A stretch of DNA of 64,000 bases, taken from the sequence record PV660448; one strand, given 5' to 3'. This document shows positions 23,394 through 55,920 of this stretch, one piece after another. The stretch is from Escherichia phage LF82-4. How positions within the stretch are numbered: the first letter of the stretch is position 1; every line of letters begins with the position of its first letter. The position numbers were made by a program, and so were the translations under genes. The notes under the pieces were generated by a model. That model was not told where the DNA came from, did no database searches, and saw nothing but the letters and a program-made list of their open reading frames with translations.

Positions 23394-23627
23394 CTACCGA
23401 TTGTGTTTTAAATGTTGATAAAGTTCTTCAACTTGTTTAGGGTCCAAAACAATTAGGTCATTTTCTTGGCGAAGATAAAGCCATCCCTTATCCCCAGGAC
23501 CATTTTTACAAAACATCGCCACCATATCATCATCTTCAGCGCTTTCAGGTAAAAGTTCAAGCACACCGTCTTCAGATTTTCCAGTATAATCGTAAAGCAT
23601 AATATCCTCACATAATCTCGTTAACAT
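23394..23627 (-). CDS. hypothetical protein
   Basis: 77 aa acidic ORF. Confidence 0.4.
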   Translation of the reverse strand: MLTRLCEDIMLYDYTGKSEDGVLELLPESAEDDDMVAMFCKNGPGDKGWLYLRQENDLIVLDPKQVEELYQHLKHNR

Positions 23628-23826
23628 ACATTTGCAATTCGGTGTGAGCGTCGGCCATCTTTTTCATAGCTCTGTTAATGTCGATGTCTCCATCTTCGCA
23701 ACCATGAGCATTTTCCCAATCAGATACCGCATTAGCGTACTCTTCAATCAAAAACATCAACTTAGAAATCTTTTCTTTACGTGTCATAACGTTCTCCTCT
23801 AGTAAGTAAGGTCTACTATAACACAA
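23608..23826 (-). CDS. hypothetical protein
   Basis: 72 aa ORF. Confidence 0.4.
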   Translation of the reverse strand: MCYSRPYLLEENVMTRKEKISKLMFLIEEYANAVSDWENAHGCEDGDIDINRAMKKMADAHTELQMYVNEIM

Positions 23827-23852
23827 CCTGAGGAGAAGTAAACTGCTAAATG

Positions 23853-23882
23853 CAAAAAAGCCCCAACCTTTCGGAAGGGGCT
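23853..23882 (-). terminator. intrinsic terminator (repeated 24-nt hairpin, copy 1)
   Basis: AGCCCCAACCTTTCGGAAGGGGCT with GNRA-type loop, followed on minus strand by UUUUUU. Confidence 0.6.
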
Positions 23883-23886
23883 TTGA

Positions 23887-24444
23887 TTAGTTTTTGTAAT
23901 ATCGTAAAGGGTTGATATGGAATGAAAGCATTGCGCGTGGAATAGGACGTCTCAAAAGACTCTTAAGTTTCCAACCACAGTAAACACGCAGATAAAATGT
24001 AATACCACCAACCTTAAGATAAGGTATAGCAGCGAATAATCCCCATGCAGACTCGTTCCAAACTAAAAGATATCCATGATGTGCTGGGTCAGGAGATCCT
24101 GATTTAGTTTCGGCGTTGCCTTTATAGTGCCATTTTGATGAAGCTTCGCGACCTAAAACATGATACGAAAAATTATATGCTTTGTTGCGCCATAACCAAG
24201 CTACGCGTTGAGCATATTTACCTATAACAGGAATTTTACGTATTTTAGACCAACGTTCAACATGGCCACGGTCACCATCGATAGGATTATCGTAAGTCAT
24301 CATCCAGTCAAAGCCATAAGGTAGTTTACCGGTTTTTTCACTATGGAATGGAACTACAAATGGTGCTAGAATAATTGCTAAAATCGCTGCGATCCAATCT
24401 ATAGGAACAAGAACAACCCAACTTACATATTTTAAAAATTTCAT
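23887..24444 (-). CDS. hypothetical membrane protein (T4 rI.-1 position)
   Basis: 185 aa; N-terminal transmembrane helices; own late promoter TATAAATA upstream and hairpin terminators on both sides. Confidence 0.55.
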   Translation of the reverse strand: MKFLKYVSWVVLVPIDWIAAILAIILAPFVVPFHSEKTGKLPYGFDWMMTYDNPIDGDRGHVERWSKIRKIPVIGKYAQRVAWLWRNKAYNFSYHVLGREASSKWHYKGNAETKSGSPDPAHHGYLLVWNESAWGLFAAIPYLKVGGITFYLRVYCGWKLKSLLRRPIPRAMLSFHINPLRYYKN

Positions 24445-24462
24445 ATATCCTCTCTTAGTTTA

Positions 24463-24470
24463 CAAGGATA
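24463..24470 (-). promoter_or_regulatory. late promoter TATAAATA for membrane protein gene 23887..24444
   Basis: Minus strand TATAAATA 19 nt upstream of ATG 24444. Confidence 0.55.
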
Positions 24471-24474
24471 TTTA

Positions 24475-24505
24475 TACAAAAAGCCCCAACCTTTCGGAAG
24501 GGGCT
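24475..24505 (-). terminator. intrinsic terminator (repeated 24-nt hairpin, copy 2)
   Basis: Identical 24-nt hairpin directly after rI stop, U tract follows. Confidence 0.6.
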
Positions 24506-24511
24506 AGTAAA

Positions 24512-24814
24512 TTAGATAGATGTAGGCTCTAATTTTATTTTCATGAACTCGGCAAATTGTCTGGCGGTTTTTATGCCTTGTTCATGACATTCAAATGCAT
24601 CATCACAGGGGCTATTTTTGTAATGCTTTGCCATATACTTATAGAATTTTTCAGAGTTCTCGACATTTTGAATTTCAAACAAAGTATATACGTTTTTAAT
24701 CCCTGATTCCATAAAGTTATCAAAGTATGGGTCAATATGTGCAGTACCAACGATAGGAGTTGTTGCTGCAAAAAACCCCAGCATCGCCATGACAGCTATC
24801 GCTCTTAAGGCCAT
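24512..24814 (-). CDS. rI: lysis inhibition regulator rI (antiholin)
   Basis: 100 aa; signal-anchor MALRAIAVMAMLGFF...; motifs DPYFDNFMESGI and KNSPCDD...C match T4 rI from memory. Confidence 0.8.
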   Translation of the reverse strand: MALRAIAVMAMLGFFAATTPIVGTAHIDPYFDNFMESGIKNVYTLFEIQNVENSEKFYKYMAKHYKNSPCDDAFECHEQGIKTARQFAEFMKIKLEPTSI

Positions 24815-25063: not shown

Positions 25064-25071
25064 TATTTATA
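25064..25071 (-). promoter_or_regulatory. late promoter TATAAATA upstream of rI.1/rI
   Basis: Minus strand TATAAATA 25 nt upstream of ORF 24827..25039. Confidence 0.5.
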
Positions 25072-39087: not shown

Positions 39088-39117
39088 CCAAAAAGCCCCA
39101 ACCTTTCGGAAGGGGCT
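39088..39117 (-). terminator. intrinsic terminator (repeated 24-nt hairpin, copy 3)
   Basis: Identical 24-nt hairpin at 3-prime end of tRNA-like RNA region, U tract follows. Confidence 0.6.
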
Positions 39118-39119
39118 AA

Positions 39120-39430
39120 GCCTTGCGGCAACCTTGTCGGGGTTTCCACCTACTAGGTAAGTGTTTGTACGAAACGCCGGGATTCGAACCCGGTTATTAA
39201 GCAGTTGACGCTACTCAATATTTTTAAAAGGCCATATCTCGACCATATCCGAACGTTCCGTCAAAAACGCTACTCGGCTTACGGCAAAGATATTTCCTCG
39301 AATCGATAATTCTGTGCGCCGTTTCTGCTGTGATGTAAGGGGATATTAACGAATCATAAAGATTTATTAAGACCAGTCCTTACTCAGGGAACATCAGTCC
39401 GACGACTTACCGGTAGCGACCCGGCTTCTT
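39120..39430 (-). ncRNA. non-coding, tRNA-like RNA region (possible remnant tRNA or T4 species-1/2-type stable RNA)
   Basis: About 310 nt with no ORF; minus strand contains canonical T-arm CCGGGTTCGAATCCCGG followed by CGTTTCG that pairs with upstream CGGAACG, but the intervening 58 nt do not fold into a standard D/anticodon arm; followed by a hairpin terminator. Confidence 0.3.
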
Positions 39431-39780: not shown

Positions 39781-40449
39781 TCACTTAAATTTTAGTTTAT
39801 AGCCTTTAATCCAACCTTCCGGAATAGGATCGGTTTTCTTAATTTTCTTAGATTTCTTTTCTTCTAATGAATGAATCCACATAGTACCAAACTGGGAATT
39901 TTTCTCGCCTTGTTGGTGTTTGTTCCTGGCGTGGGTATCTTTCATTTTAGCAATAGTTTCGGAAGTATGATTTTTATTTAAAAACGACTTAGTGCTAGAG
40001 AATTTTTCTCTGTATTCAGGTAAAGTCCACAGATGCTTTAATTTCTCTGAACCCATTTTACGATATTTTTCTTGAAGCACTTCATCAGAATCAAATCTCT
40101 CTTTAAAAGCTTTGGCTCCTTTAATAGAGGCTTCTTTCTTTTTATAATTAAATTCGTAAGTATTTAAATGGTCCCAACCACCTTCGCCACCAAGTTTTAA
40201 ATTATATACGTCAGAACGATTCAAAAATTCTTCGTTTACGATATTTTTCTCGGCTTCAAACATCTGCTCTTTAGTGTCAAAGAATTCTAAAATTTCTTTA
40301 TTAAAATTTTCTATACCATACTTGTCTTGGGCTCTTTTTAATAATTTACCAGAACCCATATATCCATCATCTAAATTTTCGGTAGAATGAGCGCCTATAT
40401 AGATTTTATTATTAATTTTATTTGTTATTTTATAAGTGTAATGGAACAT
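39781..40449 (-). CDS. segB: GIY-YIG homing endonuclease (SegB-like)
   Basis: N-terminus HYTYKITNKINNKIYIGAHS is a canonical GIY-YIG motif; 222 aa; sits between tRNA genes as T4 segB does. Confidence 0.75.
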   Translation of the reverse strand: MFHYTYKITNKINNKIYIGAHSTENLDDGYMGSGKLLKRAQDKYGIENFNKEILEFFDTKEQMFEAEKNIVNEEFLNRSDVYNLKLGGEGGWDHLNTYEFNYKKKEASIKGAKAFKERFDSDEVLQEKYRKMGSEKLKHLWTLPEYREKFSSTKSFLNKNHTSETIAKMKDTHARNKHQQGEKNSQFGTMWIHSLEEKKSKKIKKTDPIPEGWIKGYKLKFK

Positions 40450-40490: not shown

Positions 40491-40562
40491 TGGCCCTGGC
40501 TGGTTTCGATCCAGCTACCTATCAGTTATGAGCTGACAGCTCTCCCATTGAGCTACAGGGCC
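40491..40562 (-). tRNA. tRNA with CAU anticodon (elongator Met or lysidine-modified Ile)
   Basis: Minus strand 72 nt folds as a cloverleaf: acceptor GGCCCTG/CAGGGCC, D stem GCTC/GAGC, anticodon stem GTCAG/CTGAT with loop CTCATAA, T stem GCTGG/CCAGC with loop ATCGAAA, discriminator A; no encoded CCA. Confidence 0.85.
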
Positions 40563-45288: not shown

Positions 45289-45738
45289 TTACCCCTTGTA
45301 TCCGAGTTTCCTAAGTCCGTCTTCGGTTAGAACTCGAAATTTTATATTTCTCTTTTCTGCGACAGCAGAAGCAGCTTTCCATTTGTCGCAGTTCACAGAC
45401 CAGGTGTATATTTCATTCATATAACGTTTCTTTGCTGCGGTCGTAAGATTTGCAGGCTTAATAGGTGGTTGAGTTTCTTTCTTTGGTTTTATTTCTACAA
45501 AGAACTCTTGACCTGATGCATCTTTCATCCATATGTCCATATAGTATCGACGTTTCTTACCTTCAGCATTACAAAAATATGGAATTACGGCTGTTTCACT
45601 ACCCCATGCAATAATTTCCGGATTTTTATCCAACCATTCGAAAAAGAATTTTTCCCAGTTTGAACGATACGTTATTTTGGTATGGTCTCCACGGTATTTT
45701 TTTAAATTTTTTGGGACCCATTTACCAGAGTAGGCCAT
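45289..45738 (-). CDS. 4: head completion protein gp4
   Basis: [18 protein letters not shown]...; 149 aa; matches T4 gp4 from memory; late promoter TATAAATA 27 nt upstream. Confidence 0.9.
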
Positions 45739-45749
45739 GTTGTCCTCCT

Positions 45750-45757
45750 TATAAATA
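45750..45757 (+). promoter_or_regulatory. late promoter TATAAATA for genes 53 onward
   Basis: Exact T4 late consensus TATAAATA 43 nt upstream of gene 53 start. Confidence 0.6.
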
Positions 45758-45799: not shown

Positions 45800-46375
45800 T
45801 TGTTATTTACATTCTTCGACCCAATAGGATATAGTGCTAAAACAGTTGATAAGAATGCACCTACTATTCCTATGACAGACATATTTCGTAACTATAAAGA
45901 GTACTTTAAACGTGTTGCTGCCAATTATAGATTACGTTCTTATTACATTAAAGGCTCTCCACGTCCTGAAGAACTAGCAAACATAATTTATGGCAACCCT
46001 CAATTATACTGGGTCCTTTTGATGTGTAATGATAACTATGATCCGTATTATGGTTGGATTACATCTCAGGAAGCAGCGTATCAAGCGTCTATTCAGAAAT
46101 ATGCAAATGCTGGCGGAGACCAAATTCTTTACCATATTAACGAGAATCGTGAGAAATTTTACAATTTAGTTTCATACCCAGACGAGCCTTTAGTGTGGTA
46201 TGATAAAGGTGATGAAGCTCGTAAGTATCCGCAATATAAAGGACCTTTAGCTGCAGTAGATACTTATGAAGCGGCAATATTAGATAATGAAAAACTTCGT
46301 AAAATAAAAATTGTTGCAAAAGAAGATATAAACTCGTTTATTACTGATTTGATTCGTGAGATGGAGATTGCATAA
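45800..46375 (+). CDS. 53: baseplate wedge protein gp53
   Basis: MLFTFFDPIGYSAKTV...; TTG start 6 nt after GGAAGGAG RBS; late promoter upstream. Confidence 0.85.
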   Translation: MLFTFFDPIGYSAKTVDKNAPTIPMTDIFRNYKEYFKRVAANYRLRSYYIKGSPRPEELANIIYGNPQLYWVLLMCNDNYDPYYGWITSQEAAYQASIQKYANAGGDQILYHINENREKFYNLVSYPDEPLVWYDKGDEARKYPQYKGPLAAVDTYEAAILDNEKLRKIKIVAKEDINSFITDLIREMEIA

Positions 46376-53900: not shown

Positions 53901-53997
53901 CTCTAGATTTAGAGAGCTTGTTAATGAAAGATTGTTAGATAACGTGGGAAATCCTAGAGACCCGATTAATCCACCACAGGTTAAATTAGATGAATGA
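50899..53997 (+). CDS. 7: baseplate wedge initiator gp7
   Basis: 1032 aa, same length as T4 gp7; ATGA overlap with gene 6. Confidence 0.9.
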   Translation: MTVKAPAVTSLRLSKLSANQVQIRWDEVGANFYYFVEIAETKTANGEAIPRNSYRWTNLGYTADNNFFESGLNSLTTYMMRVATAAEGFEQSDWRYTEEFETFEINAYTFQHMIEMQLANEFISEKFTKNNTSYVDFNNDTIMAALMSESFQFSPAYTDVSSIRNFIIGENQYHEIQGHIQDVCKDINRVYLMESEGILYLFERFQPIVKVSNDKGQTWKAVKLLNDRVGYPLSRTVYYQSEYTTYLLGYDKIFYGRKSSDIRWSADDVRFSSQDVTFAKIGDQLNLGFDVEIFGTYASLPGNVSRIAEAITCNDDYVYIAARDKVRFVKTSNAPIDSDPLSPTYSERLFEPEMFTITGNPKAVCYKMDSVGGRIFALIIGEVENVNDDPRTKPILDSVDKGVYVLDHDAGTFKRIFGNTEEERRRIEPAFTNMSTDGVELYISSSNFKFLESDIVDDPETQSKYGLLGAVKYEYPREWLADKHYHMMIFASNEESNWETFSPTPMQYYAEPFFSYSRKSGTRSWINNSDRAVVIYSDLLYTKVVESYPSTSPDRKVHEYWNDGDCKIVMPNIEFTGFKKYASGMLFYKSSGEIISYYDFSYRVRDNVSIIWKPTNVFLTASLQNQEKETSWVPVEETGLADPDLRPLLTTMMPESYLLDNTNFEAFCEAYIQYLSDGYGTHYNNLLNLIKNKYPREEHAWEYLWSEIYKRNIYLNAEKRDLVSRFFESRSYDFYSTKGTEASYKFLFKVLYNEDVEVEIESSAGTEYDIIIQSDSISEDLVGQTIYTATGRCNVTYLERSYSKGKLQWTVTIHNLLGRLLVGQEVKAERLADFEGEIVRGIKGKELAQNTIDYFNRGRAYYVMKIKSNLPSSRWKSDVLRFVHPVGFGFIAITLLTMFINTGLTLKHVETIINKYKNYKWDSGLPTEYADRVARLDPQGNVEFNPVTGEVIYDAGPYAGIEYPLPANYNEENDNSIFQGQLPSERRKPMSPLFDASGTTFSRFRELVNERLLDNVGNPRDPINPPQVKLDE

Positions 53998-54994
53998 TTC
54001 AAGTGTTGTCTATCGTGCGATAGTTACTTCAAAATTTAGAACTGAAAAAATGTTGAATTTCTACAATTCAATAGGTGATGGTGATAATAAAAACACCATC
54101 TTTATAACGTTTGGTCGGTCTGAACCATGGGCTGCTAATGAAAATGAGGTGGGCTTCGCCCCACCGTATCCAACAGACTCGGTTTTAGGTGTAACAGATA
54201 TGTGGACTAACATGATGGGTTTAGTTAAAGTTATCCCATCTATGTTAGACTCGGTTATTCCTAGACGTGACTGGGGAGATATTCGTTATCCGGACCCTTA
54301 TACATTCAAAATAAATGATATAGTCGTATGTAATACAGCCCCATATAATGCCACTGAAGTCGGAGCTGGATGGTTAGTATACCGTTGCGTAGATGTTCCT
54401 GATGTTGGGATATGTTCTATTGAGTCTCTCGACAACAAAGAAGAATGTCTTAAATTAGGCGGTAAATGGACTCCATCTGTTAGGTCTTTAACCCCTCCTG
54501 AAGGCCGTGGAGATGCTGAAGGGATTATCGAAGTTGGTGATGGATATATATGGGAGTATCTTTATGAGATTCCACCTGATGTGTCTATAAACCGATGTAC
54601 TAATGAATATATAGTCGTTCCATGGCCGGAAGAAGTTAAAGAAGACCCTGCTCGTTGGGGATATGAAAACAATCTAACCTGGCAACAAGATGATTTTGGC
54701 CTTGTGTATAGAGTTAAAGCAAACATAATTCGTTTTAAAGCCTATTTAGACTCAGTTTATTTCCCTAATGCAGCACTGCCTGGTAATAAAGGATTTAGAC
54801 AAATTTCTATTATCACAAACCCGTTGGAAGCTAAACTCCGTCCTAATGACCCTAATATAAAAGCTGAAAAGGATTATTATGACCCCAGAGATTTACAGCG
54901 TCATTCCGGTGAAATGATTTATATGGAAAACCGTCCACCTATTATTATGGCAATGGACCAAACCGAAGAGATCAATATTTTGTTTATGTTCTAA
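53990..54994 (+). CDS. 8: baseplate wedge protein gp8
   Basis: 334 aa as T4 gp8; followed by hairpin terminator. Confidence 0.9.
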   Translation: MNDSSVVYRAIVTSKFRTEKMLNFYNSIGDGDNKNTIFITFGRSEPWAANENEVGFAPPYPTDSVLGVTDMWTNMMGLVKVIPSMLDSVIPRRDWGDIRYPDPYTFKINDIVVCNTAPYNATEVGAGWLVYRCVDVPDVGICSIESLDNKEECLKLGGKWTPSVRSLTPPEGRGDAEGIIEVGDGYIWEYLYEIPPDVSINRCTNEYIVVPWPEEVKEDPARWGYENNLTWQQDDFGLVYRVKANIIRFKAYLDSVYFPNAALPGNKGFRQISIITNPLEAKLRPNDPNIKAEKDYYDPRDLQRHSGEMIYMENRPPIIMAMDQTEEINILFMF

Positions 54995-54998
54995 TTTA

Positions 54999-55020
54999 GG
55001 GAGACTTCGGTCTCCCTTTC
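54999..55020 (+). terminator. intrinsic terminator after gene 8
   Basis: GGGAGAC-TTCG-GTCTCCC followed by TTTC. Confidence 0.6.
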
Positions 55021-55023
55021 GTG

Positions 55024-55031
55024 TATAAATA
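55024..55031 (+). promoter_or_regulatory. late promoter TATAAATA for gene 9
   Basis: Exact TATAAATA 26 nt upstream of gene 9 ATG, just after the gene 8 terminator. Confidence 0.65.
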
Positions 55032-55056: not shown

Positions 55057-55920
55057 ATGTATATTCAAACTCCAAAACAATTGATTGACGTTGGCGAAAT
55101 TGGTAACGCTTCTACAGGCGATATCCTTTTTGACGGCGGTGTTAAAATAAACAATGATATAAATGCTATTTACAATGCGTTTGGCGACCAACGAAAAATG
55201 GCAACTGCTAATGGGACAGGACCAAATGGACAAATAATCCATGCTACTGGATACTACCAAAAAGGAGGTCCTACTGATTATTTCACCCCTGTTCCAGTAG
55301 GAAGTAGACACGACATAGATGCTTCCACCGGTGGTGTTATTGTTACTGTTGCTAGAGGTGAACTCGGTGATTCCGTGGAATTTATAAATTCAAACGGGTC
55401 AATTTCGGTAAACAACCCATTAAGTATCCAAGCATTAGATTCTATTAAAGGTGTTGCAGGTAATTTAGTTATAACCACACCTTATACTAAAGTTACTCTT
55501 CGTTGTATTTCTTCTGGTACAGGCGGCTCAATATGGGATTATTCTACAGAAAGTATGTTTAGTCATACCGAAATTCCTGTAGACGGGACATGGAATATTA
55601 TTTCAGACTATGTCAATATTCCTCTATTTTATAAAACTGAATATAATGCTGCTAAACTTTTGGTTACATGCCAATCTGCCAACGGCAGAAAAATTAAATC
55701 ATGCGAAATAAATATTCTAATAGATACAATTAATTCAAGAGTTATTTCAACCGAATACGCAGTGATGCGCGTTGGTAATGATAACGAAGAAGATGAAATT
55801 GCGAATATTAGTTTTTCGATAATTAACAATTTTGCCACTATGACAGTTTCTTCACATATAAATGGTCTTCGAGTGGCAGCTAAAGTTATTTCAACTCAGA
55901 AAATTAGGGTCGCTCAATAA
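55057..55920 (+). CDS. 9: baseplate wedge tail fiber connector gp9
   Basis: MYIQTPKQLIDVGEIGNASTGDILFDGG; 287 aa; late promoter TATAAATA 26 nt upstream. Confidence 0.9.
   Translation: MYIQTPKQLIDVGEIGNASTGDILFDGGVKINNDINAIYNAFGDQRKMATANGTGPNGQIIHATGYYQKGGPTDYFTPVPVGSRHDIDASTGGVIVTVARGELGDSVEFINSNGSISVNNPLSIQALDSIKGVAGNLVITTPYTKVTLRCISSGTGGSIWDYSTESMFSHTEIPVDGTWNIISDYVNIPLFYKTEYNAAKLLVTCQSANGRKIKSCEINILIDTINSRVISTEYAVMRVGNDNEEDEIANISFSIINNFATMTVSSHINGLRVAAKVISTQKIRVAQ

Follow-up and report, generated by a model that had tools for sequence, protein, structure and literature searches.

The window analyzed here, a 64,000-nucleotide (nt) stretch of Escherichia phage LF82-4 (sequence record PV660448), encodes, directly downstream of the antiholin gene rI, a 185-amino-acid (aa) protein of the DUF7338 family. 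The segment carrying this gene is probably a moron-like mobile gene cassette of a Mosigvirus (RB69-group) phage (estimated probability about 0.72), built in the manner of the cassettes that recombine via PeSLs, i.e., stem-loops joined to an early promoter. A first-pass annotation of this DNA had proposed an insulated single-gene late unit encoding a membrane protein with a possible role in lysis control or superinfection exclusion. The architecture is borne out at the sequence level, as the gene lies with its own late-promoter motif between two terminator-like hairpins, while the proposed tie to rI finds no support in the genomic distribution of the family.

Anatomy of the cassette and of its empty site

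The open reading frame (ORF) begins with ATG and, like all genes of the rI region of the window, lies on the minus strand, which the first-pass annotation had left unstated (Table 1). Its composition is not foreign (GC content of 38.4%, compared with 37.2% in the window). On either side stands one copy of an exact 28-nt direct repeat, AAAAAGCCCCAACCTTTCGGAAGGGGCT, at a spacing of 623 bp. As minus-strand RNA, each copy consists of a GC stem, a GAAA loop, and a run of five or six U residues (-16 to -18 kcal/mol, z about -3), the upstream copy folding at -16.0 kcal/mol (z -3.2) and the downstream copy at -17.9 kcal/mol. The identical hairpins reported earlier on both sides of the gene are thus confirmed as terminator-like folds. 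The downstream hairpin begins four bases past the stop codon, and a Shine-Dalgarno-like GAGAGG is located 5-10 nt 5' of the ATG. The late-promoter motif TATAAATA is an exact match, as had been claimed, but its distance from the ATG is 24 rather than 19 nt; the unit delimited earlier, ending at 24470, stops within this motif (24476..24469). A search of the cassette locus against Rfam returned no RNA family.

Further evidence comes from related genomes. The locus is 100% identical to that of the Escherichia phage LF82-1 series and 96-98% identical to those of other Mosigvirus phages. The rI/mobD.2a junction was found in 154 Mosigvirus records, and the gene is present there in 22 of them, about one in seven (protein identity at least 95%); 22 phage records also span the whole 1.8-kb query. 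In the other approximately 132 records, RB69 included, the site is empty and rI is retained.

Five empty-site phages (RB69, Av-05, SQ17, Mizar, and SA35RD) were compared with the window base by base. All share the order rI stop codon, one hairpin, early promoter, and mobD.2a, the resident stem-loop and early promoter being kept in each. In RB69, Av-05, and SQ17 the single hairpin is base-for-base that of the window, while the other two phages have a UUAU loop in place of GAAA. The right flank of SQ17 and the left flank of Av-05 are identical to the outer flanks in the window, which equals an empty site plus exactly 623 bp (U-run, TATAAATA, leader, ORF, and hairpin). The authors of the SA35RD record annotated the identical element as a terminator with a T4 early promoter; the resident element therefore corresponds to a canonical PeSL.

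The filled architecture also occurs in the independent genomes ESh27 and PTK, in addition to the LF82 series. The motif TATAAATA is identical in both, and the gene differs from that of the window by 16 nt (4 aa) in ESh27 and by 10 nt (3 aa) in PTK; as most of these differences are synonymous, the gene appears to be under purifying selection. In PTK (around 1150-1215 of the extracted locus, L099; L numbers denote individual loci and records in the comparison), the sequence to the left of the upstream hairpin is 'aatcaa', as before the downstream copy, and not 'tttact', which suggests that the two copies of the repeat have undergone exchange or gene conversion. The empty and filled alleles of near-identical genomes constitute an unusually clean natural case of stem-loop-mediated insertion in T4-type phages, and they offer natural isogenic-like pairs (filled LF82 series, ESh27, and PTK; empty SQ17 and RB69).

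The probable source of the stem-loop, and the late-promoter motif

The hairpin has a third copy in the window, at the end of the tRNA/rnaD/rnaC operon (three matches, compared with none in 100 shuffles). There it leads straight into an early promoter, with no cargo gene. The rnaC/rnaD region is 90-97% conserved in 677 records and is annotated as such in ATK47 and RB59. In two Gaprivervirus loci (L008 and L013), the same hairpin is followed by TATAAAT(C/A) and then by a DUF7338 gene encoding a protein 74-77% identical to that of the window. Dhakavirus-type loci (L015-L017) contain a closely related hairpin at the operon end (stem GGCCC, not GCCCC), followed by TATAAATA and the DUF7338 gene, and in two of them (L015 and L016) the hairpin and TATAAATA are found on both sides of the gene. 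The occurrence of the hairpin, late-promoter motif, and DUF7338 gene at the operon end in these genera suggests that the cassette has moved between stem-loop sites. At the rnaC site of Mizar and LF82-1, the same hairpin and TATAAATA stand ahead of an unrelated, soluble-looking protein of 208 aa. The tRNA/rnaC operon terminator is the likely source of the stem-loop of the cassette, and this stem-loop, either by itself or in fusion with a late promoter, behaves as a portable boundary for several loci and cargos.

The terminator site itself is polymorphic (window 39093-39428, minus strand, compared with LF82-1, L009, and Mizar, L091); the window differs from LF82-1 at this site, though the two are 100% identical at the rI locus. 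The adjoining segment 39118-39428 (minus strand) is free of ORFs and 90-97% homologous to the rnaC/rnaD region, which in some records includes tRNA-Arg as well. It matches no Rfam family and contains no tRNA recognized by ARAGORN; rnaC and rnaD seem to be conserved stable RNAs without a family model.

The weight given to TATAAATA derives from its placement and conservation and not from its frequency. The chance of finding the motif on the coding strand within the approximately 35-nt gap between hairpin and ATG is estimated at about 0.002-0.005. Its start lies 32-34 nt 5' of the ATG in the cassettes of Mosigvirus, Gaprivervirus, and most Dhakavirus-type phages, with 34 nt for Gaprivervirus and Dhakavirus, while Karamvirus cassettes have CATAAATA instead, starting 28 nt 5' of the ATG; a late-promoter motif is found at the matching position in three genera besides that of the window (Gaprivervirus, Dhakavirus, and Karamvirus). 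Late expression of the cassette in the window is thereby a well-supported prediction. Another composite of this kind is observed at 54995-55031 (plus strand), where the hairpin GGGAGACTTCGGTCTCCC is fused to TATAAATA between ORFs 53990-54994 and 55057-55920; it is a second putative combination of terminator and late promoter in the window.

Relation to known mobile elements

The closest known system is constituted by the PeSL cassettes described for RB49/phi1, PST/T4, and nt-1/KVP40 (Arbiol et al. 2010, PMC2839356; Comeau et al. 2014, PMC4122927). In RB49 and phi1, recombination between stem-loop/promoter cassettes excises or inserts single ORFs, and circular intermediates were shown experimentally (PMC2839356; PMC4122927). 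The window shares with them a single accessory ORF placed between near-identical GC-rich (GGGG...CCCC) stem-loop terminators in a hyperplastic region, presence or absence of this ORF among near-identical phages, junctions that fall inside the repeat, and intact neighboring genes. The right boundary is a canonical stem-loop with a T4 early promoter. In contrast, the upstream stem-loop is joined to the late motif TATAAATA and not to an early promoter of the sigma-70 type, and the origin of the stem-loop is traceable to the terminator of the tRNA/rnaC operon. Neither of the two papers mentions late promoters (0 occurrences in PMC2839356 and PMC4122927), so that the PeSL idea is here extended to cassettes that carry one.

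The features of a moron are also found at the level of sequence motifs, namely an own promoter and terminator and a position between genes that are adjacent in relatives. Morons, a concept of Hendrix and Juhala, were defined in lambdoid phages. As with these, the cassette is inserted between the neighbors of its relatives and is dispensable within the group. Lambdoid morons, however, are expressed from the prophage and benefit the lysogen, whereas here the phage is virulent and the wiring seemingly late lytic.

In the proposed mechanism, the resident site would have comprised the rI stop codon, a GC-rich stem-loop terminator, a T4-type early promoter, and the mobD.2a-like gene. A 623-bp segment would have been inserted by homologous recombination within the stem-loop, an event that would duplicate the stem-loop and leave both neighboring transcription units intact; the stem-loop would have been copied from the tRNA/rnaC operon terminator, and the cassette would have moved between stem-loop sites. 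Transcripts arriving from upstream would stop at the first hairpin, the putative terminator of the rI.1-rI late unit, and the gene would be read mainly from its own gp55-dependent late promoter, the transcript ending at the second hairpin. The product, anchored by one N-terminal hydrophobic helix, might act late at the inner membrane as an accessory fitness factor, a step proposed with low confidence. Adjacency to rI would be a by-product of where a compatible stem-loop lay.

Modules made of a stem-loop and a late promoter may be the equivalent of PeSLs among late genes; seeded by the terminator of the tRNA/rnaC operon, they might enable individual late genes to move from one stem-loop site to another across the genera of Tevenvirinae. 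Examples are the cassette of the window, the modules that flank the gene on either side in L015 and L016, the module ahead of another cargo in Mizar and LF82-1, and the composite at 54995-55031. That such modules are the counterpart of PeSLs and DUF7338 is at the same time a new class of effector is, taken jointly, unlikely.

The rI neighborhood

The position of the gene directly downstream of rI, a late-promoter motif like that of the rI.1-rI unit, and the hydrophobic anchor of the product could together indicate a functional partner of rI, i.e., a late envelope protein acting in lysis inhibition or timing as the equivalent of T4 rI.-1. The rI.1-rI pair likely has its late promoter in the TATAAATA at 25071..25064 (minus strand), which overlaps the end of tk and is located 24 nt 5' of the rI.1 start codon; this predicted unit would end at the hairpin 24478-24505. 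The slot directly downstream of rI on the same strand makes the two genes positional analogs only. T4 rI.-1 (NP_049716) is a protein of 128 aa without a hydrophobic segment, and its gene overlaps the rI stop codon, whereas the ORF of the window encodes 185 aa including a hydrophobic helix and is set apart from rI by a terminator and a promoter. The comparison with T4 rI.-1 proposed earlier revealed no similarity (best BLASTP E of 0.16 over 12 residues), and homology is ruled out.

The distribution of the gene argues in the same direction. A role in lysis control had been suggested from adjacency to rI, yet approximately 132 of the 154 Mosigvirus records keep rI without the gene, and this adjacency is limited to 22 Mosigvirus genomes. 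Nor does a functional tie to rI appear elsewhere, since none of 78 related IMG/VR loci, those of FelixO1-like and jumbo phages included, has an rI homolog within 3 kb. A partnership with rI is accordingly very improbable. The adjacency looks incidental, its best explanation being that a compatible stem-loop lies after rI. That the protein acts in lysis control or in superinfection exclusion is a guess, read from membrane anchoring and late timing only. The case corrects an annotation by association: the gene following rI here is not rI.-1, and its position is silent on lysis inhibition.

The DUF7338 family and the topology of its members

Residues 1-184 of the 185-aa protein match Pfam DUF7338 (PF24027; E 8.6e-62, 208.4 bits compared with a cut-off of 27), and the protein also belongs to phrog_2143 (E 1.4e-78), to which PHROG assigns no function. 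Homologs are present in 553 phage records, encompassing many T4-like genera, FelixO1-like phages (~60% identity), Aeromonas phage Aeh1, Pseudomonas phage VCM, and jumbo phages. An exhaustive profile search yielded 709 clusters at 50% identity, all of ~170-200 aa and single-domain. No DUF7338 homolog was found on plasmids, and a search of 185,579 species genomes, which reaches close relatives only, gave one match, 66% identical, on a 178-kb contig (L097, NZ_JBHSCL010000010.1, 'Flagellimonas marina'). This contig has the size of a T4-like genome and is probably a contaminating enterobacterial phage. The sole homolog labeled E. coli adjoins terminase and portal genes.

Conservation was assessed in two alignments, A1 with 30 sequences and A2 with 58, the latter reaching down to 20% identity. 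The protein of the window contains all of the family-invariant (Trp83, Asn87, and Gly157) and near-invariant residues (Thr50, Gly57, Arg86, Trp158, and Lys159), and these eight positions are kept even at 20-30% identity. The conserved WLWRN motif lies in the helical region and the GWK motif within a five-strand antiparallel sheet. FelixO1 ORF109 (Felix01p097), SUSP1 agp134, WG01 ORF138, and PMBT1 gp274 are full-length homologs of equal length (55-77% identical) that share the motifs TxDNxxxGDxGH, WLWRNKAYNF, and GWK; in contrast to the gene of the window, theirs lie in or beside tRNA arrays and not beside rI, and many lack a late-promoter motif.

The first-pass annotation had predicted N-terminal transmembrane segments. 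A hydrophobic N-terminal anchor is indeed present, but both hydropathy and the AlphaFold2 model indicate one helix instead of several. The Kyte-Doolittle 19-residue mean reaches 2.4 at about residues 7-33 and is at most 1.26 elsewhere, and 83 homologs likewise have a single strong N-terminal hydrophobic segment (25-27 residues, mean hydropathy 2.2-2.5). The model, with a predicted local distance difference test score (pLDDT) of 92.9 and a predicted template modeling score (pTM) of 0.83, shows a helix at 9-33, helices up to residue ~96, and the five-strand antiparallel sheet. The part following the hydrophobic helix carries a net charge of +14 and 10 Trp residues in the protein of the window (mean net charge of +8 over 83 homologs). 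The charges flanking the helix weakly favor an orientation in which the N-terminus would be inside and the bulk of the protein, with the C-terminus, periplasmic.

The helix could alternatively be the buried core of a soluble alpha/beta fold, so that the product would not be a membrane protein. The confidence of the helix within a compact model (pLDDT 97-98, pTM 0.83), the hydrophobic faces of the strands, and a sub-threshold Foldseek list dominated by hot-dog folds, in which a sheet wraps a helix, are compatible with this possibility. Against it stands the segment of 25-27 residues with a hydropathy of 2.2-2.5, preceded in 83 homologs by K/R residues at the extreme N-terminus; such a long hydrophobic segment following N-terminal K/R is the signature of a signal anchor, which makes a soluble product quite unlikely. 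The hot-dog-fold entries were rejected as noise.

Searches for remote relatives were negative within their scope. Foldseek found nothing below E = 1 in the PDB, BFVD returned members of the family only, NCBIfam and PADLOC contained no matching family at E up to 1, and Pfam matched the query and 58 homologs to the DUF family alone. A literature search for DUF7338, PF24027, and phrog_2143 found no papers. A PDB profile match of residues ~53-102 to the perimembrane helix of the flavivirus M protein (E 1e-3, 22 bits; RVExWxxRN compared with RVAWLWRN) was rejected as a compositional resemblance between interfacial helices and not homology; it probably explains the stray 'envelope protein' labels of some family members. 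DUF7338 proteins may form a so far unrecognized class of inner-membrane effectors of phages, with a fold not seen before.

Possible functions of the product

In a CRISPRi-ART screen of SUSP1, the homolog agp134 was classified as 'Semi-Fit' (fitness of 1.245 compared with a threshold of 1.2, 3 guides, Kolmogorov-Smirnov (K-S) p 0.087; PMC11879866). This gene (SUSP1 NC_028808, 88394-88951; L096, 1201-1758) is a member of phrog_2143 and equivalent to Felix01p097. The result is weak evidence that the DUF7338 family contributes to infection in the laboratory host. The annotation table of that study, which covers T4, T5, and SUSP1, lists phrog_2143 once, in SUSP1 (PMC11879866), and T4 therefore has no family member.

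A late envelope protein that mediates superinfection exclusion, masks receptors or lipopolysaccharide (LPS), or counters a membrane-associated defense of the host would fit the patchy accessory distribution (22 of 154 records), the mobile cassette with its own promoter, as in many phage morons, and the restriction of the family to large virulent phages, with no plasmid matches and one probably contaminating genome match. The membrane anchor and the basic, Trp-rich domain would suit interaction with anionic envelope components. On the other hand, PADLOC and NCBIfam gave no match, the Semi-Fit phenotype, observed with one phage in a laboratory strain, points to a part played in the basic cycle of infection, and the exclusion proteins of T4, Imm and Sp, are early and not late. 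Such a function is rather unlikely.

A single hydrophobic helix and a late promoter would also be expected of a holin or another lysis effector, and the product is labeled 'holin' in the GenBank records of Citrobacter phage HP1 and Salmonella phage SLAM_phiST56. These labels rest on no evidence: the query and 58 homologs match DUF7338 and no holin family in Pfam, no PDB structure is matched, and the knock-down in SUSP1 is only Semi-Fit. T4-like phages, moreover, already encode the holin T. Among the annotated T4-like and FelixO1-like loci examined, the gene lies in or beside tRNA regions and adjoins no endolysin, and the contig of one jumbo phage (L012) is the only locus with a Hydrolase_2 gene, 2.6 kb away. 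A lysis effector is very unlikely. Holin T, RI, Imm, and Sp are small single-pass envelope proteins of T4, held in the inner membrane by an N-terminal hydrophobic anchor; they provide a loose analogy only, as no similarity to the protein of the window was detected in sequence or structure. Being large, restricted to phages, free of structural relatives, and associated with one weak fitness signal, the DUF7338 family is a reasonable target for functional work.

Association with tRNA genes

DUF7338 genes are found in or beside tRNA arrays in unrelated phage groups (L004, L010, L018-L022, L029-L051, L075-L082, and L096). Genes for tRNAs are located within 3 kb in 51 of the 78 related loci, and all 44 loci with at least 55% identity have one within 1.1 kb. 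In FelixO1-like phages, the gene has a tRNA at a distance of only 9-20 nt on each side; it is embedded in tRNA arrays also in Karamvirus, Av-05, the phage of L010, and 237-kb jumbo phages. Transfer as a conserved tRNA-gene-tRNA block was considered and rejected, as the flanking tRNA species differ between lineages.

The repeated embedding in unrelated phage families may reflect a real functional or mobilization link, and the protein might, for instance, protect or exploit the tRNA supply of the phage. The counts given above, and the recurrence of the association with different tRNA species, speak for such a tie. However, there is no obvious route from a membrane-anchored protein to tRNA biology, 27 of the 78 loci have no tRNA nearby, and the gene of the window works away from the tRNA region. 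Regions of tRNA genes are, besides, known as hyperplastic and as hotspots of homing endonucleases, and tRNAs and terminators offer conserved homology for recombination; in the window, a Seg-like GIY-YIG gene is found in this region. Such hyperplastic hotspots, with their abundance of conserved homology and of homing endonucleases, are the likeliest explanation of the adjacency, and a functional tie to the tRNA arrays is very improbable.

The record of Av-05 (KM190144.1; L050 and L093) is unusual in this respect. With 120,938 bp, it is filed under Vequintavirinae, contains an rI locus of the Mosigvirus type (95% identical), and also carries, within a tRNA array, a DUF7338 gene of the FelixO1-like type; the assembly is possibly chimeric.

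Weighing the cassette model

Several observations count against a mobile late cassette with a membrane-anchored product. Present-day alleles are compatible with either direction of the change, insertion or deletion, and the closest homologs outside the 22 filled phages are only 74-77% identical. The motif TATAAATA is not enriched in the window (7 occurrences compared with 8.5 expected by chance). No late-promoter motif precedes the gene in WG01, L014, L052, and the Slopekvirus-type loci L021-L028; in the WG01-type and Slopekvirus-type loci the hairpin is present and the motif absent. Late timing is therefore not a property of the whole family. As for topology, the numbers of K/R residues on the two sides of the helix are about equal in 83 homologs, and a domain as basic as this one would be compatible with a position in the cytoplasm, too. 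The Semi-Fit result is statistically weak, and polar effects are possible, as the guides lie between tRNA genes.

Features of the locus and additional observations

Table 1. Sequence features of the cassette, its neighbors, and the tRNA region in the window
Feature	Position	Strand	Remarks
185-aa ORF	24444..23887	minus	ATG start; DUF7338 / phrog_2143 member
24-nt leader with Shine-Dalgarno-like GAGAGG (24454..24449)	24445..24468	minus	Read from sequence
TATAAATA, exact match to the T4-type late promoter	24469..24476	minus	Begins at the end of the upstream U-run
Upstream copy of the 28-nt repeat: hairpin AGCCCCUUCC-GAAA-GGUUGGGGCU, then U5	24478..24505	minus	Left cassette boundary
Downstream copy of the 28-nt repeat: same hairpin, then U6 (to 23853)	23855..23882	minus	Right cassette boundary
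T4-type early promoter (G-TTTACT, 16 nt, TATAGT)	about 23815..23843	minus	
mobD.2a-like gene	23826..23608	minus	Driven by the resident stem-loop and early promoter (PeSL)
rI antiholin gene	24512..24814	minus	Upstream neighbor, outside the cassette; PF24205 (E 3e-24); phrog_1246
Third hairpin copy, end of the tRNA/rnaD/rnaC operon	39093..39117	minus	Exact repeat; putative operon terminator
GIY-YIG (Seg-like) homing-endonuclease ORF	39781-40449	minus	Directly beside tRNA-Met
tRNA-Met	40491-40562	minus	Sole tRNA called in the window, compared with 2-3 at this place in relatives

Elsewhere in the window, two copies of TATAAATA stand back to back at 45750-45757 (plus strand) and 45772-45765 (minus strand), between the divergent ORFs 45738..45289 (minus strand) and 45800..46375 (plus strand); the segment 45750-45772 looks like a bidirectional late-promoter region.

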